Shown: piece after piece, positions 1 to 36,521 of the stretch
How positions within the stretch are numbered: the stretch's first letter is position 1
Layout of the letters: each line of letters begins with the position of its first letter
Assembly (NCBI GenBank): GCA_001189215.1
Contig: LFCR01000002.1
Span: 74,677 to 138,676 of the forward strand
From: Parcubacteria bacterium C7867-008
Lineage (GTDB): Bacteria; Patescibacteriota; Minisyncoccia; Phycocordibacterales; Phycocordibacteraceae
Length of the DNA: 64,000 nucleotides
Direction: 5' to 3'
Position numbers and translations under genes: made by a program
Notes under the pieces: generated by a model
What the model saw: only the letters and a program-made list of their open reading frames with translations
Told to the model about the DNA's origin: nothing
Databases searched by the model: none

Positions 1-197
1 AGTGGTTCAGCATCCTCGGCAGTTACATGTGCAAAGCCCTCACCAAGAAGATAGATACTGTCATTCAAAGCACCTGCGCCGAGATCAAGTGCAGATTCTT
101 TTTGTTGAACATGTGGCATCGCTTGGACGATTAAACGTCGCGGAGGCTTATCTTTAGTTAGTTCGTAAAAATCCTTCCAGTTCTTCCAAAGACTCAT
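1..197 (-). CDS. class I SAM-dependent methyltransferase, N-terminal part only (gene runs off window start)
   Basis: Reverse-complement of 1-197 translates MSLWKNWKDFYELTKDKPPRRLIVQAMPHVQQKESALDLGAGALNDSIYLLGEGF..., with the glycine-rich LDLGAGAL SAM-binding motif; ATG is the complement of 195-197. Confidence 0.5.
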   Translation of the reverse strand, partial: MSLWKNWKDFYELTKDKPPRRLIVQAMPHVQQKESALDLGAGALNDSIYLLGEGFAHVTAEDAEP

Positions 198-214
198 GGC
201 TGGATTATATCAGT

Positions 215-273
215 GCTGGCAGTCTGGGAAGATGTTGGAACCTTTCTGCAATTTATGCTAGGTTCTGTCCAGA
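215..273 (+). repeat. copy 1 of conserved ~60-nt upstream element (GCTGGCAGTCTGGGAAGATGTTGGAACCTTTCTGCA...TATGCTAGGTTCTGTCCAGA)
   Basis: Near-identical sequence recurs at 824-882, 1272-1304 and 1581-1640; ends ~20 nt before RBS GGAG and ATG at 292. Confidence 0.8.
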
Positions 274-291
274 TTTGCACTGGAGAAACAC

Positions 292-780
292 ATGAGCGAC
301 GAAGCTGAGGCGAGCATCCGTTCATGTGAGGGATGCTCTGCCTGTTGCTACACACATGCAGTCGGAGAAATACAGAAATGGGAGTTCAGTACTTGCACTT
401 CATGCAGTGAAGCGGGTTGCGGAATCTACCCATCGCGGCCCCGTGCGTGCGGTTCATATTTCTGCGCCTGGGCAGTTAACGACATTGGAAACGATGACGA
501 ACGTCCGGATAAGGTAGGTGTGGTGTGCAATACACTATTCACCCGTTTCACCACGGATGATCCGCCTTCAATACTAATGCTGGAAGCATGGCCTGGCGCA
601 CTTGATGAGAGACCGGCACAGGCGCTGTTGGCTCGAATGCTTGCAGAGGGGATATCAGTCCGCACCGGAACACGAGATGGGGCACCACGCTGGCAATACC
701 ATGTTCTCGAACAAACAATGAAACCGTTTGGGCAGATGCTCGAAAAGAACAATCTTAAGGTTGTCTGGCATGATATTTGA
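292..780 (+). CDS. YkgJ-family (UPF0153) putative zinc/iron-chelating Cys-rich protein
   Basis: CEGCSACC (CxxCxxCC) followed by CTSCSEAGCGIYPSRPRACGSYFC, typical of PF03692/YkgJ family; RBS-like GGAG 8 nt upstream. Confidence 0.6.
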   Translation: MSDEAEASIRSCEGCSACCYTHAVGEIQKWEFSTCTSCSEAGCGIYPSRPRACGSYFCAWAVNDIGNDDERPDKVGVVCNTLFTRFTTDDPPSILMLEAWPGALDERPAQALLARMLAEGISVRTGTRDGAPRWQYHVLEQTMKPFGQMLEKNNLKVVWHDI

Positions 781-789
781 ACTCACTCA

Positions 790-818
790 GAGACCGCCTT
801 AGGGCGGTTTCCTTTTAT
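790..818 (+). terminator. rho-independent terminator (GACCGCC-TTAG-GGCGGTT + T-run)
   Basis: GC hairpin followed by TCCTTTTAT immediately after stop of 292..780. Confidence 0.7.
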
Positions 819-823
819 AATAG

Positions 824-882
824 TTGGCAGTCTGGGACAATGTTGGAACCTTTCTGCAATATATGCTAGGTTCTGTCCAGAA
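824..882 (+). repeat. copy 2 of conserved upstream element
   Basis: TTGGCAGTCTGGGACAATGTTGGAACCTTTCTGCAATATATGCTAGGTTCTGTCCAGA; precedes RBS AAGAGGAG and ATG 915. Confidence 0.8.
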
Positions 883-914
883 TGTCCCCACCAAACTCTT
901 AAGAGGAGATACGT

Positions 915-1205
915 ATGTCCAAAGAGCATGAGACGCGAGAAGTAAGGCCAGACGAGGCAGGTGCCATTCGTGATCTCGAAGAAGCTCACGAGAACAACTT
1001 CAGCTTCTCTCTGACCGAGGTTGAACAAGCTACATGCAAGGAATGGATGAAGACCCATGACACTGAGTGCCGTATCCGCGACACGGACACGGCGATCGGT
1101 GGTAGGTGGTCGTTCAATTTTTCCAAGACGACTCTGGGAAATGTGTGCAAGGTCAGCTGCGCATGTGGCCAGGAAAAGAATGTCACTGATTATGGCTGCT
1201 GGTGA
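915..1205 (+). CDS. small Cys-rich hypothetical protein (96 aa, 6 Cys, acidic N-terminal half)
   Basis: ORF with strong RBS AAGAGGAGAT 6 nt upstream; Cys pattern CKEW...ECRI...VCKVSCACG...GCW; no family recognised. Confidence 0.5.
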   Translation: MSKEHETREVRPDEAGAIRDLEEAHENNFSFSLTEVEQATCKEWMKTHDTECRIRDTDTAIGGRWSFNFSKTTLGNVCKVSCACGQEKNVTDYGCW

Positions 1206-1271
1206 ACTGAACAGATAATTCGAGAAGCTGAAAGTACAATACGTACGAGTAGGCTTTTCTCTTTATATATT

Positions 1272-1304
1272 GCTGGCAGTCTGGGACGATGTTGGAACCT
1301 TTTT
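1272..1304 (+). repeat. copy 3 (truncated) of conserved upstream element
   Basis: GCTGGCAGTCTGGGACGATGTTGGAACCTTTT then diverges; overlaps the stop of the minus-strand ORF 1303..1560. Confidence 0.7.
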
Positions 1305-1560
1305 ATGTATTCGGGCTCTTCATAAGCAGGAAAGGCAGCATGAGAAACGGCGCGAACAAACAGTAAATCGGATCAGAAAAATTCAACAATAGGATAAATA
1401 TCACTCCACCTGCTACTAGTGAAACAAGTAATATCAATAAACGGTATGATTTTTGTTTTGCAGCAACCTGTGTTGCAGGAAGTCTTTCCATTATGTTTAG
1501 CACTATGAAAGCAATAGGCCCGCCAACGGCAAACGCGAGAAATCCAAAGCCGAGTAACAT
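1303..1560 (-). CDS. small hydrophobic membrane protein (85 aa), hypothetical
   Basis: ORF-track 1303..1716 trimmed to internal Met (MLLGFGFLAFAVGG...) because the longer form runs through repeat copy 4 and into the next gene; 2-3 predicted TM helices. Confidence 0.4.
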   Translation of the reverse strand: MLLGFGFLAFAVGGPIAFIVLNIMERLPATQVAAKQKSYRLLILLVSLVAGGVIFILLLNFSDPIYCLFAPFLMLPFLLMKSPNT

Positions 1561-1580
1561 ATTTAGATAGTAGCATCCTT

Positions 1581-1640
1581 GCTGGCAGTCTGGGACGATG
1601 TTGGAACCTTTCTGCACCGTATGGTACGTTCTGTCTAGAC
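1581..1640 (+). repeat. copy 4 of conserved upstream element
   Basis: GCTGGCAGTCTGGGACGATGTTGGAACCTTTCTGCACCGTATGGTACGTTCTGTCTAGAC; ends 20 nt before RBS GAGGGG and ATG 1660. Confidence 0.8.
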
Positions 1641-1659
1641 TTATTTGAGGGGAACCAGC

Positions 1660-2127
1660 ATGCAAAAACTCGTCCTTGTGCGTCATGGGGAATACAGCAC
1701 GGTAGACGGCCAACATCTCCTGAACGATGAAGGTCGCCAGCAGATGTCTGTACTTGCAACTAAGCTAAAGGCGTTGATTGGTGGTCAGCGGGCCGTACTG
1801 CACACATCATCTGCACCCCGGGCCACCGCCAGTGCAGCAATCCTTGCAGACGCTCTGGACGTTCCCTGCGAGGAACATCTTGAGCTCTGGTCTGGGGGTG
1901 ACGGCGTGGGTCACTATCCGGATACACACGCCATGGTCTTGCAGATCATGGAGTGGGCGAAGGAGTATGACGTTCTCATTCTCGTCACTCACATGGAGTT
2001 CGTCGAACGGCTGCCCATCAAATTCGCCAACCTCGTCTTCAAGACAGCGATACGCGAGGTGCACATTCCGAAAGGCCATGCCGGTGTCATCGATTGCGAC
2101 ACCAAGCTAATGTCCCAAGTTTCCTGA
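1660..2127 (+). CDS. histidine phosphatase superfamily protein (SixA / phosphoglycerate-mutase-like)
   Basis: N-terminal LVLVRHGE catalytic RHG motif; start moved from TTG 1645 to ATG 1660, which has RBS GAGGGG 7 nt upstream. Confidence 0.6.
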   Translation: MQKLVLVRHGEYSTVDGQHLLNDEGRQQMSVLATKLKALIGGQRAVLHTSSAPRATASAAILADALDVPCEEHLELWSGGDGVGHYPDTHAMVLQIMEWAKEYDVLILVTHMEFVERLPIKFANLVFKTAIREVHIPKGHAGVIDCDTKLMSQVS

Positions 2128-2140
2128 ACACCTACCGCCT

Positions 2141-2188
2141 GAAGAAGCCCGGAGAAATCCATCGCTTCTCCGGGCGGCTTCTTTTTAT
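2141..2188 (+). terminator. rho-independent terminator
   Basis: GAAGAAGCCCGGAGAA...TTCTCCGGGCGGCTTC hairpin followed by TTTTTAT. Confidence 0.7.
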
Positions 2189-2229
2189 ACAAATGATTGC
2201 TGGGAGACTAGGGATCGAACCTTAATTTG

Positions 2230-2300
2230 TCGGGGTGCGGGGAATTGAACCCCGTCTAACTGGTCCCAAACCAGTCGTACTACCGGTATACGACACCCCG
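2230..2300 (-). tRNA. tRNA-Pro (anticodon TGG), no encoded CCA
   Basis: Minus-strand cloverleaf: acceptor CGGGGTG/CACCCCG, anticodon stem ACTGG/CCAGT with loop TTTGGGA, T-arm CGGGG-TTCAATT-CCCCG. Confidence 0.8.
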
Positions 2301-2603
2301 TATGAACGAAAGGACTGCGCGAGGACATGTCCTATGTAAATGCATCCTACCAGATTTTTGATTTTAGCCCACCCAGTTAACGGTGTCTGAATTTTAACCA
2401 TTAAAGTGGCATGTAAAGATATTCACATAACCACTTCTCTTCGCCATTAGTAATGTCTTTATGTGAAGAAGTCTTCATATTCACGACCTTAAATAATACA
2501 GCCTAAATATTAATGATTTCTTGGAAATCTTATAAATCATTCCTGGAGATACTGTCCTTTATCCCCACTGTCCCCCACGTTGTCCACAGTTATACACAAA
2601 TCA

Positions 2604-2630
2604 AAAAGACGGTCTCAGGACCGTCTTTTT
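2604..2630. terminator. bidirectional hairpin terminator (AAAAAGACGGTC-TCAG-GACCGTCTTTTT)
   Basis: Perfect 8-bp GC stem flanked by A-run and T-run; lies just 3' of minus-strand tRNA-Gly. Confidence 0.7.
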
Positions 2631-2639
2631 GATTTTACC

Positions 2640-2713
2640 TGGTGCGGATAGGGAGAATCGAACTCCCGACTCGTCCTTGGCAAGGACGCGTTTTACCACT
2701 AAACCATATCCGC
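2640..2713 (-). tRNA. tRNA-Gly (anticodon GCC), CCA encoded
   Basis: Acceptor GCGGATA/TATCCGC, anticodon stem CGTCC/GGACG with loop TTGCCAA, T-arm GGGAG-TTCGATT-CTCCC, 3' ACCA. Confidence 0.8.
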
Positions 2714-2740
2714 TACAGGGCCGATAATAACACCCCTTCC

Positions 2741-3739
2741 CTACTTTGTCTTCTTGGCGAGGCGTAAAGATGAGTAGTATGCAGCACCAACGAAGATAAG
2801 TCCTGCTGAACCTGTAATGATTTCAGGTACTTCCACAAAGATGCTGGTGAGCATGGCTATAGCAAGTGCCAAAATAGCCCAGTGTGCGCCGTGTTCAAGG
2901 TATACGAGAGCATCAAGTGTCTTACGACGCACCAGATAGACCGTAAGGGATCGTACGAAGTATGCACCGATACCGAGACCAACAACGATGAGAAGAAGCT
3001 CATTGGTGAGGGCAAAAGCACCAACCACACCATCTAGAGAGAAAGCCGCATCGAGTATGTTGAGGTATACGAAGAGGGCTGCACTCCCCGCCCCAATAGA
3101 CTTCTCTGCGCCCTTTGTGAAAGAGTTTGCAACACCCTGAATAACAATGAACAGCACAATGCCAACAACACCAGCAAGAAGAACATTAGCTGAATGATCT
3201 GGCATAAGCAACGCAAGCACAATAAGCACCACAAGACTTATTCCGATCTCTATTGCCTCAATCTTTCCCCACCCTGCCACAATGCGCTCAATAGAACGTA
3301 TCCAGTGGATGTCCTTTCCAACACTAAAGAAGTACTTGAGTGAAACCATGAGCAGGAAGATGCCTCCGAATGCAGAGATTGCATGCCGAGCGCCCTCAAG
3401 TAGATGTCCATATTCATTTGGATTGAAAGCTGCAAGCTGAGCGATCATCCATGGTGACGCACCGACGCTGGCACTCACGATGAGAATTGGTAGCACAAAT
3501 CGTGTACCAAAAACCGCAACAAGTATTCCCCACGTTAGGAAGCGCTTCTGCCACTTCTCATCCATGTTCGCGAGGATCTTTGCATTTACCACCGCATTAT
3601 CGAAAGACAGTGTTACTTCGAGTATTACGAGCAGTGTCGCAATGAAAAATGCCTCCGGACCACCCCACCAAAACACTCCGGCAAGGATTGCAATTGAGAC
3701 AATAACTGGAAGCGCGAATGCGCGAATGGCTGAGTTCAT
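2741..3739 (-). CDS. TerC/DUF475-family integral membrane protein
   Basis: Polytopic membrane protein with EVTLSFDNAVVNA and AFSLDGVVGAF motifs characteristic of TerC-like families. Confidence 0.55.
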   Translation of the reverse strand: MNSAIRAFALPVIVSIAILAGVFWWGGPEAFFIATLLVILEVTLSFDNAVVNAKILANMDEKWQKRFLTWGILVAVFGTRFVLPILIVSASVGASPWMIAQLAAFNPNEYGHLLEGARHAISAFGGIFLLMVSLKYFFSVGKDIHWIRSIERIVAGWGKIEAIEIGISLVVLIVLALLMPDHSANVLLAGVVGIVLFIVIQGVANSFTKGAEKSIGAGSAALFVYLNILDAAFSLDGVVGAFALTNELLLIVVGLGIGAYFVRSLTVYLVRRKTLDALVYLEHGAHWAILALAIAMLTSIFVEVPEIITGSAGLIFVGAAYYSSLRLAKKTK

Positions 3740-3766
3740 TTCCCTACTATACCGTATTCTCTATTG

Positions 3767-3838
3767 TGCTCCCGCCAGGACTCGAACCTGGAACGACTGA
3801 TCCGAAGTCAGTAATGATATCCATTTCACCACGAGAGC
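3767..3838 (-). tRNA. tRNA-Arg (anticodon TCG), no encoded CCA
   Basis: Acceptor GCTCTCG/CGGGAGC, anticodon stem ACTGA/TCAGT with loop CTTCGGA, T-arm CCAGG-TTCGAGT-CCTGG. Confidence 0.75.
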
Positions 3839-3903
3839 GTTCTTGCCTTTGCATACTACGATAGAGCTAGGAGAATGGCGAGTAGCATACTAGTATTTTT
3901 GTA

Positions 3904-5367
3904 ATGAACATGCGCGTTCCAAGTGAGGTGCGAACAGTAGCTGAAGGCCTTAGAGCAGGCGGCTATGAGGCCTATTTGGTCGGTGGCTGTGTACGAGACC
4001 TTTTGCTTGATCGAACCCCTAAAGACTGGGATCTAACTACTGATGCAAAGCCTGAAGATATTCAGCGTCTATTTCCTGAATCCTTCTACGAGAACGACTT
4101 TGGGACGGTGGGAATAAAGACAGAGTCTGAAGACGATCGGTTGGCAGTCATTGAAGTAACCCCCTACCGCACAGAGACTGGATATTCAGATAAACGCCGT
4201 CCTGATGCTGTGGCATTTGGGGATAGTTTGGAAGAAGACCTTGCGCGCCGAGACTTCTCGGTAAACGCTATTGCCTACGATGAATCTAAAGGACAAATCG
4301 TAGATCCGTATCAAGGACAAAAGGACATTGAGCTAAAAGTACTACGTACGGTGGGTATCGCAGCTGATCGGTTTGAAGAAGATGCCCTGCGTCTTATGCG
4401 AGCAGTGCGTTTAGTTGCTGAACTTGAATTTGCCTTAGATGCGGATACTGCTGCAGCAATATTGGAAAAAGGTCCTAATCTTAAGCATGTTTCACGTGAA
4501 AGAATACGGGATGAGTTTGTACGTATTCTTGAGTCTAAACAGCCTATGCAGGCCCTTGTATTGGCTCAGCAGCTTGGAATCCTTGAGTATATCGCCCCTG
4601 AGCTAACCAAAGGTATTGGTATAGAACAGAACCAAGCACACAGCTATGACGTGTTCGGTCATCTTATGCGTGCCTTGCAGCACGCAGCAGATAAAGACTG
4701 GCCTCTTGAATTAAGGCTTTCGGCTGTATTTCATGATGTTTCAAAGCCTGAAACACGTCGTTGGTCCGATGATAAGAAGGACTGGACCTTCCACGGCCAC
4801 GAAGTGGTTGGTGCCCGTACAACAAGAAAAGCGCTTGAAAATATGAGGTTTTCACGTGAAACCATCGAAAAAGTATCGAAATTAGTGCGTTGGCACATGT
4901 TCTTCTCAGACCCTGACCAGATTACTCTTTCAGCTGTTCGTCGAATGATTCGTAATGTTGGCGAGAAAAACATCTGGGATCTTCTAAACCTCCGTATTTG
5001 TGACCGTATTGGCACTGGACGACCTAAGGAACAGCCTTTTAGGTTCCGTAAATATAAAGCAATGGTTGAGGAAGCACTTAGAGACCCAATTTCTGTAGGA
5101 ATGCTTAAAACAGATGGCTCAAGACTTATGAATAAGTTTCACATGAAACCAAGTCCTGAGCTTGGATGGATATTAAACGCCCTTTTGGAGGATGTTTTGG
5201 AGAACCCGGCTCGAAATACTGAGGAGTATCTTGATATTAAGACTAAGGAGCTAATGGCTCTATCCACTGAAAAACTTAAGGAATTGGGGGATTCAGGTAA
5301 GAAAAAGCGAGAGGAGAAAGAATCTGAGGAACTGCAGAAGATACTTGAGAAACACGGAGTAGCATAG
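3904..5367 (+). CDS. cca: CCA-adding tRNA nucleotidyltransferase with HD domain
   Basis: GGCVRDLLLDRTPKDWDLTT polymerase-beta-type NT motif at N-terminus plus HD-domain-like FHDVSKPE; product fits a genome where half the tRNAs lack encoded CCA. Confidence 0.75.
   Translation: MNMRVPSEVRTVAEGLRAGGYEAYLVGGCVRDLLLDRTPKDWDLTTDAKPEDIQRLFPESFYENDFGTVGIKTESEDDRLAVIEVTPYRTETGYSDKRRPDAVAFGDSLEEDLARRDFSVNAIAYDESKGQIVDPYQGQKDIELKVLRTVGIAADRFEEDALRLMRAVRLVAELEFALDADTAAAILEKGPNLKHVSRERIRDEFVRILESKQPMQALVLAQQLGILEYIAPELTKGIGIEQNQAHSYDVFGHLMRALQHAADKDWPLELRLSAVFHDVSKPETRRWSDDKKDWTFHGHEVVGARTTRKALENMRFSRETIEKVSKLVRWHMFFSDPDQITLSAVRRMIRNVGEKNIWDLLNLRICDRIGTGRPKEQPFRFRKYKAMVEEALRDPISVGMLKTDGSRLMNKFHMKPSPELGWILNALLEDVLENPARNTEEYLDIKTKELMALSTEKLKELGDSGKKKREEKESEELQKILEKHGVA
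4490..4501. repeat. palindrome TTTCACGTGAAA (copy a, inside cca ORF)
   Basis: Exact 12-mer palindrome; one of four copies within 1.1 kb. Confidence 0.8.
4850..4861. repeat. palindrome TTTTCACGTGAAAC (copy b, inside cca ORF)
   Basis: 15-mer GTTTTCACGTGAAAC identical to copies c and d. Confidence 0.8.
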
Positions 5368-5368
5368 T

Positions 5369-5380
5369 TTTCACGTGAAA
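5369..5380. repeat. palindrome TTTTCACGTGAAAC (copy c, immediately after cca stop)
   Basis: Starts 1 nt after TAG stop of cca. Confidence 0.8.
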
Positions 5381-5564
5381 CGGGCTTATATAGCCTTAAA
5401 TATAAATATTTAGGGTGTTTCGTGTGGAACCTAAGGTATATAAATAACTAGAGACCCGTAGGGGTCTCTGTTGCGGTCAACCAGGTCTGAAGACAAGGTT
5501 GGGGTTGGGCATTTGGTGAACGTCTTCAAGGAGAAATTTCCCTGGCTAACTTAAAAGAATGCGT

Positions 5565-5576
5565 TTTCACGTGAAA
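5565..5576. repeat. palindrome TTTTCACGTGAAAC (copy d, intergenic)
   Basis: Same 15-mer in 450-nt noncoding gap. Confidence 0.8.
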
Positions 5577-5819
5577 CTTCCGAATCTGACCCATTTATTA
5601 TTCAGGGAATACATCCCGATTATGTTGGTCGATCAGCTTTCAGGTGACAGCGCCTATGATGTTTGAGCACAAAGAGCTCCAAAAGAACTACCGAATCGAG
5701 ATTCGGCAATCCCTTCGCAGGTCTTTGCCGTCTCGTCCTTACGTATCATATATCCATAAAGGACATCGTAAAGGACACAGGAGTGGATAACTTATATAAA
5801 TGTCCTTTATATGTAGTAC

Positions 5820-6584
5820 CTAGAGCGTTATTGAAAGAGGGCAGTGATCTGAACCATATACCGCTGAATGGATTTCAGCTTTCTTTATGTGCTTAACAAA
5901 TTCCTTAGATACAAAGAAATAATCGATACGCCAACCTACATTTCGCTCCCGAGCACGGGTGAGAGTATCCCAGTATGTATACGCATCTGCCTGCTGTGGG
6001 TGGAAGTGTCTGAAAGTATCTACGTATCCCGCCTCAATAACCTCATCAAGCCATTTACGTTCAATCTCTAGGAATCCTGTAGTTTTCTCGTTTTCCTTTG
6101 GGCGAGCCAAATCAATAGGGAAGTGTGCGGTGTTTACATCCCCACAGAACACAACGGGCTTTGATTTTCTAAGTCCTTCACAGAAAGCCAGAAAGTCCTC
6201 GTAATATCGCAGCTTGAAGTCTAGACGCTCTGGGCCACGTCCACCGTTAGGGAAGTAGATATTAAGGAGCCAGAAATCTTCATATTCTGCGCCAATCAGA
6301 CGGCCTTCGTCATCAAACTCTTTAATTCCCATCCCATATATGACAGAGAGTGGTTCAATTCGTGAGTATATTGCTACTCCGCTATAGCCTTTCTTTATCT
6401 TGCAGGGAGAGAAGAATGCTGAGAACCCCCCTAAATTAAGGACATTTTCAGGGAGCTGCTCTGGCTCTGCTTTAACTTCTTGGAAACAGAATATATCTGG
6501 TTTAACTGCCTTAAGAAAGGGTTCCCAGTACCCATTACGCTCAACTGCACGAAGGCCATTAACATTCCACGAGACAATCTTCAT
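5820..6584 (-). CDS. xth: exodeoxyribonuclease III (AP endonuclease, ExoIII/APE1 family)
   Basis: MKIVSWNVNGLRA N-terminus, FCFQE, and C-terminal SDHCP motifs. Confidence 0.85.
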   Translation of the reverse strand: MKIVSWNVNGLRAVERNGYWEPFLKAVKPDIFCFQEVKAEPEQLPENVLNLGGFSAFFSPCKIKKGYSGVAIYSRIEPLSVIYGMGIKEFDDEGRLIGAEYEDFWLLNIYFPNGGRGPERLDFKLRYYEDFLAFCEGLRKSKPVVFCGDVNTAHFPIDLARPKENEKTTGFLEIERKWLDEVIEAGYVDTFRHFHPQQADAYTYWDTLTRARERNVGWRIDYFFVSKEFVKHIKKAEIHSAVYGSDHCPLSITL

Positions 6585-6602
6585 TCGAATATTGTACGAT
6601 AC

Positions 6603-7526
6603 CTATCCCTTACGACGCGAGTGAAACTTCTTATGTACCTCACGTAGGTGAGCATCGGTGACATGCGTGTATATCTGGGTAGTATTTATGGAAGCGTGTC
6701 CCAGCATTTGCTGCACGGAACGTATATCTGCTCCGTTATTTAGGAGATCAGTCGCAAATGAGTGGCGCATGACGTGTGGAGTCACTTTCTTAGTGATACC
6801 TGCCTTAGCTGCATAAATCTTTATCATTCGTTCAATGGAGCGTGGGGTAAGTCGGGTAGGGGTGCGCTTGGAGACCTTTTCTGGGTCTTTGCTCAGCATT
6901 GGGGGCATATTCACAAATAATGCCTCGTCCATATCCTTACGTGCCTTCAGATAGGCTTGGATCGCTGCTTTAGCTTCGTCAGAGAGAAATACCACACGCA
7001 CCTTTTCTCCTTTACCCCGGATAGGGAAGTCGTCTCGTGAAAGATCGAGGTCTGTATTTAAAGAGCAAAGCTCAGAAACACGTAGTCCGGTGGAGAAGAG
7101 GAGCTCAAGAATGGCCTTATCTCTAAGTGATTTCTCATCCGTGCCACTGGCAGAGGTGAGTAACCGATCAAGTTCGGTAGGTGAGATCAGGTCCAAATGG
7201 CGCTCCGGAACCTTGGCGAGCTCAATACGTTCAGGAGATAGGCCTTCAATGCCACGTTTCCGAAGGAATTTAAGGAATGCCCGGAGCGCAATGAGGTAAT
7301 AATTCTGGGTACGGCGTTTCATTGTCCCTGAAACACCTGGCTGGCGATTCAACCAGAGACGGAATTCACGAATTTTCTCTTCTGTTATGTCGGAAACCTC
7401 TTTTATGCCCATTTGGTCAAAGAAACGGCTTAGATAGTGGTCATAGTTCTCAATAGTTTTAACTGCCCGACCACGCTCGATTTCCGTATATTCCAAGAAC
7501 TGACGCTTCCATTCCTCAATATTCAT
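6603..7526 (-). CDS. tyrosine site-specific recombinase, XerC/XerD family
   Basis: C-terminal catalytic region HVMRHSFATDLLNNGADIRSVQQMLGHASINTTQIYTHV with the R...HxxR...Y tetrad. Confidence 0.8.
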   Translation of the reverse strand: MNIEEWKRQFLEYTEIERGRAVKTIENYDHYLSRFFDQMGIKEVSDITEEKIREFRLWLNRQPGVSGTMKRRTQNYYLIALRAFLKFLRKRGIEGLSPERIELAKVPERHLDLISPTELDRLLTSASGTDEKSLRDKAILELLFSTGLRVSELCSLNTDLDLSRDDFPIRGKGEKVRVVFLSDEAKAAIQAYLKARKDMDEALFVNMPPMLSKDPEKVSKRTPTRLTPRSIERMIKIYAAKAGITKKVTPHVMRHSFATDLLNNGADIRSVQQMLGHASINTTQIYTHVTDAHLREVHKKFHSRRKG

Positions 7527-8607: not shown

Positions 8608-10032
8608 ATGGCTGACGATCCTGCAGCAACACATTCAGATACTTCATCAGACCCCACTCCGTTTATTCGTACCTATGCGAAGGATGTGGCACGCCTTACG
8701 GGTAAGCAACCTGTAGCGGTACATAGAGACACTCCAGAACCTGGTGTGGTATTGCCAACGGTTGATCCAACCCAATCCTTCAACAACGCATCCCCTCGTG
8801 AGTTCCCGCAAGAAGTTATCAGTGTTGGCGCAAGTGACACGGTAGCAAACTTAAATTCAGGAAGCAGTCCTGATCTCTCTAATCGTGAAGTGCGTCGTGA
8901 TGAAATCCTCACGCGCTTGCGTGCGAAGGTAGGAAGGGGAGACGATGAACATGAAATCCATGCTCCAGCACCAACCTATACAACAATTCCGCTTCCGCCA
9001 CCTCCACCTCCTCGAATACCCACTCCGGCGCCTCCGGTTTATATTGCTCCATCAACGCCACCAATTCCTGTACCACCACCTGCACCTCATAAAACACACA
9101 AACAAGCATTCACGTTCTTTGGCCATCACGGAACAAAAGGAGTTGAGAGCGATCCCTCACCATCAAACATTCACACCTTCAAGAGTGATTTCTCTGATCA
9201 CATCGATGATAAGAAGGCCACTACGTTCTCAGTACTAGCTGCGCAGAGCGATAGTAAAGAGAATCTTGCTCATGAACCGAGACCAGCAGTTACATCATCA
9301 AAGAAAAGAAACGTTCAATTTATCCTTGGTGGTATTGCACTGGTTATCTTTACGATAGGCATTGCGGGAGGCACATACTGGTTCGTTGCGCTTCGTACAC
9401 CAAGTACTGGTGTTCCATTTGTTGTTTCATCACTCATCTTTGCGGATGAGAAGGTAGAAATAAACGGTGAGATGGGTGACGAGCTATTGCTTGCGCTTGC
9501 TGCACTAGGACAAGGGCCTTCTGTTAAGGGAAATGTTGTTGTCACTTACGCAGTAACATCAACTGACGGAAAGAGTGGTGTCATAACCGCACCGCAACCA
9601 GGAGGACAGACTATTAAGAAAATGTTCCAGAGTGCTCCAGACATTCTTCTTCGCAACATTAGTGACGAAAGTACTTTCGGTATCGTACAGGCAGGGGAAT
9701 CCAATGCGGCATTCTTTATACTCGATGTGACCTCCTACGAGCGCACCTTCGCTGGCATGCTTGGTTGGGAACCGAAGATCGCTACCGATCTTTCAGTCTT
9801 GTATCCTGCCTACCAAGAAGCACCTATTTCAACCAGTACCCCTCGAGTTACCAGCTCCCCTCGATTTAGTGACTCATCCGTAGCAAACCACGATGTTCGC
9901 ATACTTAAAGACGACTCTGGGAAAACAATCCTTATCTACGGGTACCGCGATAAACAGACACTTATTATCGCTCGTGACGAAGCAGCATTCTCAAGCATAC
10001 TCATCCGTCTAGGCACTGCAGACGGGGAATAA
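8608..10032 (+). CDS. hypothetical single-pass membrane protein with proline-rich cytoplasmic N-terminal region
   Basis: PLPPPPPPRIPTPAPPVYIAPSTPPIPVPPPAP low-complexity tract, then TM helix ILGGIALVIFTIGIAGGTYWFV, then ~230-aa C-terminal domain. Confidence 0.5.
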   Translation: MADDPAATHSDTSSDPTPFIRTYAKDVARLTGKQPVAVHRDTPEPGVVLPTVDPTQSFNNASPREFPQEVISVGASDTVANLNSGSSPDLSNREVRRDEILTRLRAKVGRGDDEHEIHAPAPTYTTIPLPPPPPPRIPTPAPPVYIAPSTPPIPVPPPAPHKTHKQAFTFFGHHGTKGVESDPSPSNIHTFKSDFSDHIDDKKATTFSVLAAQSDSKENLAHEPRPAVTSSKKRNVQFILGGIALVIFTIGIAGGTYWFVALRTPSTGVPFVVSSLIFADEKVEINGEMGDELLLALAALGQGPSVKGNVVVTYAVTSTDGKSGVITAPQPGGQTIKKMFQSAPDILLRNISDESTFGIVQAGESNAAFFILDVTSYERTFAGMLGWEPKIATDLSVLYPAYQEAPISTSTPRVTSSPRFSDSSVANHDVRILKDDSGKTILIYGYRDKQTLIIARDEAAFSSILIRLGTADGE

Positions 10033-36256: not shown

Positions 36257-36332
36257 GGTGGGGTAGCTATAACTGGTAAGAGCGCTGCTTTTCAAGCAGA
36301 ATTCCTGGGTTCGATCCCCAGCTCCACTGCCA
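36257..36332 (+). tRNA. tRNA-Glu (anticodon TTC), CCA encoded
   Basis: Acceptor GGTGGGG/CTCCACT (two G-U pairs), anticodon loop TTTTCAA, T-arm CTGGG-TTCGATC-CCCAG, 3' GCCA. Confidence 0.7.
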
Positions 36333-36521
36333 ACCGTTCTTTAACGATTCTTTTGCGCATAAATGATGCCGTCCATGCTTGGACGGCTCTTATTTTATAA
36401 AAGAATGAAAGTTCCAACATCGCCCAGACGGCAATAATATTGAAGCGGTTTGTAGGAAGTAGATTTATATAGTGGCGCCTGTATACTGCGCCAGGAAACC
36501 AACACGGAGGCTCGAAGGAGC

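Follow-up and report, generated by a model that had tools for sequence, protein, structure and literature searches.

At the left end of the 64-kb window analyzed here (64,000 nucleotides of contig LFCR01000002.1 from Parcubacteria bacterium C7867-008), a series of small genes lies beside a tRNA-Pro gene, and the gaps between these genes hold copies of one short repeated element, which is the subject of this report. On the plus strand its copies lie at 213-273, 821-881, 1270-1299 (core only, see below) and 1579-1639, and a repeat search of the window returned one direct-repeat family with four members (205-273, 813-881, 1262-1330 and 1571-1639). A 29-nt pattern of the core matched four times with 0 mismatches compared with 0.00 matches expected from 100 shuffles, so the four-copy repeat reported in an earlier note on this DNA is real. 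The element consists of two parts, a 30-nt core (TTGCTGGCAGTCTGGGACGATGTTGGAACC) and a 31-nt variable 3′ half. The 3′ half (TATGsTAsGTTCTGTCyAGA) is present only in copies 1, 2 and 4, and the genes behind these copies, which encode a CxxCxxCC protein, a 96-aa Cys-rich protein and a histidine phosphatase, are those that the note had named. Copy 3, described there as a stump, does end after GGAACCTTTTT and adjoins the stop codon (1303-1305) of a minus-strand open reading frame (ORF) of 85 aa.

Two of the note's statements on this region hold in part (Table 1; loci outside the window are cited by our own labels, an L and a number). The window does contain four copies, but the array runs on to the left of it: L051, a JGI contig with the same genes on which window position 1 corresponds to 9710, carries a further core at 9297 and a degenerate one at 8895. 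Two cassettes had been said to carry their own terminators; the one at 790-820 stands, whereas the hairpin at 2141-2181 is part of the conserved tRNA flank, where homology with L014 begins at 2135. Elsewhere in the 64-kb window there is no core except one degenerate copy at 36410-36439 on the minus strand, which may be an empty or decayed site; the tRNA near it (36257-36329, plus strand) was matched by Rfam and not by ARAGORN. The CxxCxxCC protein (292-780) had no Pfam or NCBIfam match.

Table 1. Array features, flanks and solo core in the window, by position.
Feature	Position	Strand	Remarks
SAM (S-adenosylmethionine) methyltransferase, 194 aa, N-terminal part	3-197	-	Reverse-facing cassette; further core at L051 9297; TGaTATAAT 6 nt before ATG
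Core repeat 1	213-242	+	GTGCTGGCAGTCTGGGAAGATGTTGGAACC; nhmmer 36.7 bits; between minus-strand methyltransferase start and forward CxxCxxCC gene
Putative promoter half, copy 1	243-273	+	-35-like TTGGAA at 235-240 inside core; TG at 256-257; -10-like TAGGTT at 259-264; function inferred
CxxCxxCC protein, 162 aa	292-780	+	Cassette gene; homologous cassettes in other arrays: L020 (88% nt identity), L034 (70%)
Hairpin and T-run terminator	790-820	+	End of CxxCxxCC cassette, directly before core 2
Core repeat 2	821-850	+	Repeat search, pattern and profile matches
Putative promoter half, copy 2	851-881	+	-10-like TAGGTT at 867-872
Cys-rich protein, 96 aa	915-1205	+	Cassette gene; no family match
Core repeat 3	1270-1299	+	Core-only form, 43.2 bits; TTTTTA tail supplies or abuts stop codon of reverse gene
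Membrane protein, 85 aa	1303-1560	-	Reverse-facing cassette gene; TGcTACTAT 6 nt before ATG
Core repeat 4	1579-1608	+	43.2 bits
Putative promoter half, copy 4	1609-1639	+	-10-like TACGTT at 1625-1630
SixA-like histidine phosphatase	1660-2127	+	Last cassette gene; His_Phos_1, E=1.4e-6
Start of conserved flank	2135-2196		81% identity to related genome L014; includes hairpin 2141-2181
Partial tRNA-Gln(UUG), 3′ end	2197-2222	-	Acceptor 3′ strand, T-arm and 2-nt trailer; ~7 nt past tRNA-Pro 3′ end
tRNA-Pro(UGG)	2229-2300	-	Anchors array; 3′ end faces array
Degenerate solo core	36410-36439	-	80 nt past 3′ end of tRNA 36257-36329 (+); relative orientation as in arrays

The core recurs far beyond the window. 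A scan of one genome per species with CAGTCTGGGANNATGTTGGAACC gave 65 exact copies at 50 loci in ~25 metagenome-assembled genomes (MAGs) of Patescibacteria/Paceibacterota (Parcubacteria). Profile searching then found 167 copies in those loci and 258 more in 120 metagenome loci, a few of these metagenome matches being the phage methyltransferase coincidence described below. The earlier note had suggested looking for the core in other genomes and had said that a fragment of a common mobile element in many unrelated contexts would speak against its reading of the element as a promoter or 5′-leader module; the core was found in ~25 MAGs and in over 100 contigs from metagenomes, and its unrelated contexts number in the hundreds, as those of such a fragment would. 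Among the profile matches, the core varies least at positions 14-29 (GGGACGATGTTGGAAC) and most at positions 8-12. The right edge of the core is sharp (at GGAACC) and is followed by a short T-rich tail (TTTnT), and genome-specific variants of the core exist, such as TGTGGGAC in UBA6241.

Neighboring cores are co-oriented in 114 of 116 pairs and lie a median of 530 bp apart (range 210-5500 bp). A single small ORF normally occupies each interval (median length 127 aa; 70 minus-strand, 59 plus-strand), some cassettes hold two small unrelated genes, and the largest arrays span ~7 kb with 12 or more cores (L012+L018, L008+L002 and L027+L028, each joined from two loci). The 129 interval proteins fall into 118 clusters. 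An annotated sample comprised one Nudix protein, one PIG-L/LmbE protein, a His_Phos_1 protein, a methyltransferase, a weak DprA-like match and several proteins without a family; read by eye, several more look like Nudix, HAD and GNAT proteins. To the left of a core there is either the hairpin and T-run terminator of a forward gene or, at a distance of ~20 nt, a reverse gene's start, whose ATG is preceded at 6-7 nt by TGnTAnnnT. What follows the core is of three kinds: the 3′ half, a Shine-Dalgarno sequence and a forward gene (24 of 150 copies under a strict match); an unrelated canonical TTGACA-N17-TATAAT promoter at a variable distance; or the end (stop codon or terminator) of a gene that runs towards the core from the right. 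Fourteen of the 85 resolved cores lie between convergent gene ends, with a median score of 34 bits against 21-33 bits for the others.

Some array units lack an ORF altogether, including L051 8929-9290, just left of the window, and L006 ~3320-3760, which have a TTGACA-type promoter and a hairpin and T-run terminator at their borders. Rfam scans of L051 8700-9450 and L006 matched only tRNAs, and these units may be cassettes for unknown small RNAs.

Gene content at the arrays is hypervariable among relatives. Window positions 2135-6604, a block that covers tRNA-Pro/Gly/Arg, TerC, the CCA-adding enzyme and exonuclease III (ExoIII), share 81% identity with L014 (Parcubacteria bacterium C7867-007); nothing but the cores matches to the left of 2135, and the two arrays have no cassette in common. 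This comparison with a sister genome had been suggested in the earlier note, whose description of a cassette-like accessory locus at a tRNA gene is supported. The same pattern was seen at tRNA-Gln/dnaX in six genomes (L044, L012, L002, L007, L010 and L029), where the number of cores per array runs from 1 to 12 or more, and between CAMTWI010000004.1 (L021 and L017 joined) and L016. The few cassettes common to several genomes stand in different arrays or in a different order, and between the JALHOO and JALHML genomes the cassette order is inverted. For example, the CxxCxxCC cassette, which lies in the tRNA-Pro array here, is absent from the tRNA-Pro array (L014) of the relative and present at L020 of that same genome. 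Between xer and exoIII, L006 carries a core-cassette-core arrangement, an ORF-less unit and a hybrid core, and the window has just 18 nt there. Four homologous cassette pairs from different genomes or loci (window 224-851/L020 7108-7740 at 88%, L027/L030, L010/L027 and L006/L044) each have all four of their homology ends inside a core; in ~5 further pairs only some of the ends do. We also noted that the JGI 3300001199 assembly is split between the tRNA cluster and the array, giving the two contigs L086 and L051, and that many metagenome matches are 1-2-kb contigs full of cores; the assembly break and these short contigs fit strain heterogeneity at the arrays.

The core looks as if it derives from the 3′ end of a tRNA-Gln gene. 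Written in core orientation, the tRNA-Gln(UUG) genes beside arrays begin (tt)GCTGGGAGACTAGGGATCGAACCTAG, and the core can be aligned with the reverse-complemented 3′ end of tRNA-Gln through the 2-nt trailer, the acceptor 3′ strand and the T-stem. In the alignment, TTGCTGG[C/G]AG[T/A]CT[-/A]GGGA[-/T]CGA, 18 of 22 columns are identical, after which the core has 7 extra bases (TGTTGGA) before ACC. Shuffled cores scored as well in 17 of 5000 cases (p ~0.003), and tRNA-Gln was the best of the 15 tRNA species sampled. The layout is regular too. Within 1.5 kb of a core there are 26 tRNAs, two of them from a single cluster in the window and another such pair in L014. In 24 cases the tRNA is found on one fixed side of the core and on the other strand, which turns its 3′ end towards the array and gives it the orientation of the core's reverse complement; 19 of these 24 are tRNA-Gln. 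Moreover, window 2197-2222 (26 nt) repeats the tRNA-Gln 3′ end exactly (27/27 against L012 with a further trailer base included), and this fragment is the terminal, tRNA-type repeat that closes the array in the window. Sites that are tRNA-type or hybrid also occur at the tRNA-proximal or right-hand array ends of L014, L005, L006 and L093/L137, a hybrid site being core-type GCTGGCAG followed by tRNA-type A.TAGGGATCGAAC. An identity block from the T-loop region to the tRNA end, present as a direct repeat beside that tRNA, is the textbook trace of integrase insertion, and tycheposon islands of Prochlorococcus follow this logic as well.

Partial tRNA-Gln duplicates beside full tRNA-Gln genes were seen in L093/L137 and L002/L088, with a 3′ fragment 17 nt past a divergent tRNA-Gln and 5′-part fragments upstream. 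The -10 region of the long form of the element (core plus 3′ half) at window 259-273 (TATGGTAGG) resembles the sense-strand D-loop of tRNA-Gln (TAATGGTAGG), in an orientation opposite to that of the core's own match; this likeness is possibly due to chance.

The explanation towards which we lean, and which we hold to be moderately probable, is that single-gene cassettes are integrated and excised serially, by site-specific recombination, at an attachment-type (att-type) 30-nt site derived from tRNA-Gln. The core would be an attachment-site-type repeat taken from the 3′ end of a tRNA-Gln gene, and each core would be the junction that formed as a small cassette, circular or linear, was inserted beside a tRNA 3′ end. 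A cassette would usually bring one gene and its own promoter, and repeated events would build up a co-oriented array. Recombination between cores would then add, remove and reshuffle cassettes, with the result that one locus holds different genes in different relatives. In copies 1, 2 and 4 the 31 nt after the core would act as a portable extended -10 promoter that uses TTGGAA of the core as its -35, while reverse-facing cassettes, which lack these 31 nt, would rely on a leaderless promoter at their far end. The catalyst would most likely be a tyrosine recombinase encoded elsewhere and acting in trans. Three observations point to a crossover that probably falls to the left of the invariant block, at about core positions 8-12: the left ~11 nt of the core stay with the left neighbor (window/L020), positions 8-12 differ between the otherwise homologous cassettes of L006 and L044, and hybrid sites switch type after GCTGGCAG.

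Several findings weigh against this explanation. The core is not a plain partial tRNA, since 7 nt are inserted and 1 nt is deleted in its T-loop region, and it lacks the dyad symmetry usual for simple tyrosine-recombinase core sites. Arrays also lie beside tRNA-Pro, tRNA-Ala, tRNA-Met and xer. No recombinase consistently adjoins the arrays; ~170 loci gave only Xer-type genes in a search in which serine recombinases and transposases were not covered. We saw no circular intermediates and no pairs of empty and occupied strains, and exact-protein look-ups for close strains with recent cassette gain or loss matched the same sample only. Core quality declines only weakly away from the tRNA (rho -0.31, p=0.025; some arrays enter this figure twice), and polar growth of the arrays was rejected, a weak trend being all that was seen. 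In addition, the loci were fetched by an exact 21-mer, which overestimates core conservation, and the gene calls come from a simple greedy ORF picker.

The recombinase search used phmmer with the Xer protein of the window against all ORFs of 51 + 120 loci. It found Xer-type genes in the window (6603-7526, minus strand), L006 (4198-5190), L166 (5434-6507) and L197, and no tyrosine recombinase inside arrays at the same loci. The window protein is XerD/XerA-like and scores 139.7 bits against the 265-bit cut-off of TIGR02249 (integron integrase). When 519 flank and cassette proteins were clustered, only housekeeping families recurred (dnaX, an unannotated 754-aa protein, leucyl-tRNA synthetase and others). 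In L006 and L166 the Xer-type gene is directly followed by a mini-array of two cores, where the window has 18 nt between this gene and exoIII; the proximity could be a coincidence. The homology of L014 with the window ends exactly at the Xer-type gene.

The 3′ half is plausibly a shared extended -10 promoter. Its long-form consensus, built from 24 copies in at least 15 genomes, is the core followed by yTTnTGCAAynTrTGsTAsGTTCTGTCyAGr. As a promoter, TTGGAA at core positions 23-28 would be the -35 and, 18 nt further on, TA(G/C)GTT the -10, a third hexamer position that varies being tolerated by -10 elements. The upstream TG of this -10 consists of an invariant G and a near-invariant T, and A47, T52 and G45 are invariant in the 24 copies. 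Transcription would start ~7 nt past the -10, in CyAGA, just before the Shine-Dalgarno sequence, which together with the start codon follows within 8-40 nt of the long form; the long form occurs only before forward genes. A simple consensus promoter scan does not call the long form, so that promoter activity is something that we infer. A sigma-54 or extracytoplasmic function (ECF)-type promoter was considered by eye and rejected on its spacings, as GG-N10-GC is off by one and the 19-20 nt from GGAAC to (C)GTT are too long. In the reverse-facing cassette genes TGnTAnnnT precedes the ATG by 6-7 nt and a Shine-Dalgarno sequence is absent (window 198-212 and 1561-1578; 16 other loci), which suggests leaderless mRNAs transcribed from extended -10 promoters in this clade, as it does for the 85-aa membrane gene of the window.

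The promoter or 5′-leader module of the earlier note thus survives for the 3′ half, as a candidate shared promoter that stands only before forward genes, and fails for the conserved 5′ 30 nt, which are equally well conserved between convergent gene ends, after terminators and beside unrelated TTGACA/TATAAT promoters. Its variant as a structured RNA, in which the ~60-nt element would be a leader or small RNA whose UCUGG/CCAGA and GGAACC/GGUUC hairpin controls the downstream gene, is largely refuted and, in our view, scarcely credible. The long-form consensus can form both stems, with 94.6% of cells paired, and the C/U change at column 58 keeps a G-C or G-U pair; against this, the shuffle mean is 94.7%, all 500 of 500 column shuffles pair as well, and the proposed covariation check found no compensatory change in the 10 proposed pairs. 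Pair C30-G49 is broken in 7 of 24 copies, by the G/C variation of the -10, and the entire 3′ arm is absent in 126 of 150 copies. Folded as single-stranded DNA, neither the core (z +1.2 on both strands) nor the long form (z 0.0-0.45) has an energy better than shuffles, Rfam scans of the window at gathering and at permissive E-value thresholds gave only tRNAs, and the predicted transcription start falls near the 3′ end of the element. The core could instead be an operator or activator site, or a silencer nucleation site, that co-regulates accessory genes by way of the promoters adjoining it on both sides, with shuffling as a by-product of having the same site in every gap. Each cassette promoter in the window does adjoin a core (forward starts ~50 nt to its right, reverse starts ~17-23 nt to its left with TGnTAnnnT), and three YTGGNA direct repeats lie in the core, which also provides the -35-like TTGGAA. 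However, the cores between convergent gene ends (14 of 85 resolved) are equally conserved, which argues that a promoter or regulator site is not the primary role; the leftward -10 lies anywhere from 2 to 11 nt from the core, and unrelated TTGACA promoters from 8 to ~30 nt. The similarity to tRNA-Gln and the fixed orientation to tRNAs are also left unexplained, and we consider a regulator site quite improbable.

Homologous exchange deserves more weight, though it too seems unlikely to us. The cores would then be homology anchors, and natural transformation with RecA exchange would proceed through cores of 30-60 nt, or through a core plus a neighboring conserved tRNA or housekeeping gene, with no dedicated recombinase; the tRNA-like sequence would be a relic of the first event, and concerted evolution would keep the cores identical. 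Arrays without an adjoining recombinase fit this proposal, as does the dependence of Candidate Phyla Radiation (CPR) bacteria on DNA uptake. Homology blocks of common cassettes take in whole cores on both sides as it predicts, arrays adjoin sequence conserved across species (tRNA genes, dnaX, xer/exoIII), and genome-specific variants such as the one in UBA6241 suggest homogenization within a genome. Yet at 30 nt the core is close to the minimum that RecA needs for efficient exchange, and the near-invariance of a non-coding 30-mer across species is left unexplained. Strict co-orientation, the sharp GGAACC edge, hybrid end sites and the tRNA-3′-end layout are classic site-specific signatures, and it is site-specific catalysis rather than homologous recombination that we infer.

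Other identities for the repeat were rejected. The arrays do not resemble CRISPR, where 28-37-nt repeats alternate with ~30-40-nt spacers, as cores are 210-5500 bp apart with a gene in each interval. With 4 copies and 1 degenerate copy per 64 kb, co-oriented and all but one in a single array, the core does not fit a DNA uptake sequence at ~1 per kb in both orientations either. A MITE (miniature inverted-repeat transposable element) or repetitive extragenic palindromic (REP) sequence is contradicted by the lack of terminal inverted repeats and of a palindromic hairpin. Likenesses by eye to the terminal repeats of the Tn3 family (GTCTG…TGGAAC) and to the start of a Cas13b repeat (GTTGGAAC) are taken as coincidence. 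A viral origin was dismissed because all 34 IMG/VR matches (L052-L085) lie in one phage C5-methyltransferase ORF with no array, which marks them as a coincidence of coding sequence. The 19-mer TCTGGGACGATGTTGGAAC occurs in this conserved phage C5-cytosine-methyltransferase ORF (…VWDDVGTFDG…), also in several of L088-L207, and the core reads LAVWDDVGTF in one frame.

Searches of the literature by sequence and by concept (full-text) found no description of these arrays, and the system joins ideas already familiar (att repeats beside tRNA genes, accretion in tandem and cassettes like those of integrons) in a form that we did not find described. Genomes of CPR/Patescibacteria are tiny and usually called poor in recognizable mobile elements, yet gene content varies among close relatives. 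If cassettes do move as proposed here, the arrays would provide a concrete mechanism for this variation, GGGACGATGTTGGAAC would become a sequence handle with which to pull the clade's accessory genes from metagenomes, as attC is for integrons, and genetic tools for these organisms, whose manipulation is very difficult, would gain a candidate natural landing site. A bolder possibility, which we put forward tentatively and regard as somewhat doubtful, is that CPR/Paceibacteria have a second, independently evolved system of cassette capture. It would be an analogue of the integron with a double-stranded 30-nt site derived from tRNA-Gln, cassettes that carry their own promoters and face either way, and an unlinked recombinase acting in trans, possibly the single Xer-type enzyme of the cell.

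Among known systems, Correia elements of Neisseria, REP sequences and bacterial interspersed mosaic elements (BIMEs), and MITEs are small intergenic repeats, some of them with outward promoters. The core shares with them that it is a short, conserved intergenic repeat, some copies of which may give the neighboring gene a promoter, and differs in having no terminal inverted repeats or palindrome and in being co-oriented, arrayed and tied to tRNA 3′ ends rather than scattered both ways. The likeness to integrons, sedentary chromosomal ones included, is closer. In both, co-oriented short repeats separate mostly single, small, diverse accessory ORFs (here Nudix, HAD, GNAT, His_Phos and unknowns), content is hypervariable among relatives, cassettes common to different arrays have their borders at repeats, and a stop codon abuts or overlaps the repeat, that of the reverse gene here as stop codons do with attC. 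Like clusters of attC sites lacking integron-integrases (CALINs), the arrays have no adjacent integrase. In contrast, the repeat is 30 nt long and unstructured, whereas attC is an imperfect palindrome of 57-141 nt that folds as single-stranded DNA; as the core does not fold, it is not attC. There is no IntI, the only nearby tyrosine recombinase being the one that scores below the integron-integrase cut-off. Genes face both ways near equally and have promoter-like sequences of their own, while integron cassettes are mostly promoterless and share a common Pc promoter. Finally, the repeat appears tRNA-derived, and the arrays are anchored at tRNA 3′ ends.

Elements that target tRNA genes and accrete in tandem offer the other comparison, as in the accretion of cis-mobilizable elements (CIMEs) with integrative and conjugative elements (ICEs) and in the composite islands of the staphylococcal cassette chromosome (SCC). 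In Prochlorococcus, tycheposons form islands at tRNA genes, where later insertions have been proposed to push earlier ones inward (bioRxiv 10.1101/2020.12.28.424599). The present arrays likewise lie beside tRNA genes, with units separated by att-type repeats that look like partial tRNA copies and are co-oriented with the tRNA, and both systems include non-autonomous remnants without an integrase in streamlined genomes that have few other mobile elements. A master element carrying an integrase was not seen here, and the units are of ~0.5 kb with a single gene, unlike multi-kb elements with integrase and replication modules. The repeat also differs: it is a standard 30-mer that has diverged from the tRNA (by the T-loop insertion), is conserved across species, and is used beside several tRNAs and even protein genes.

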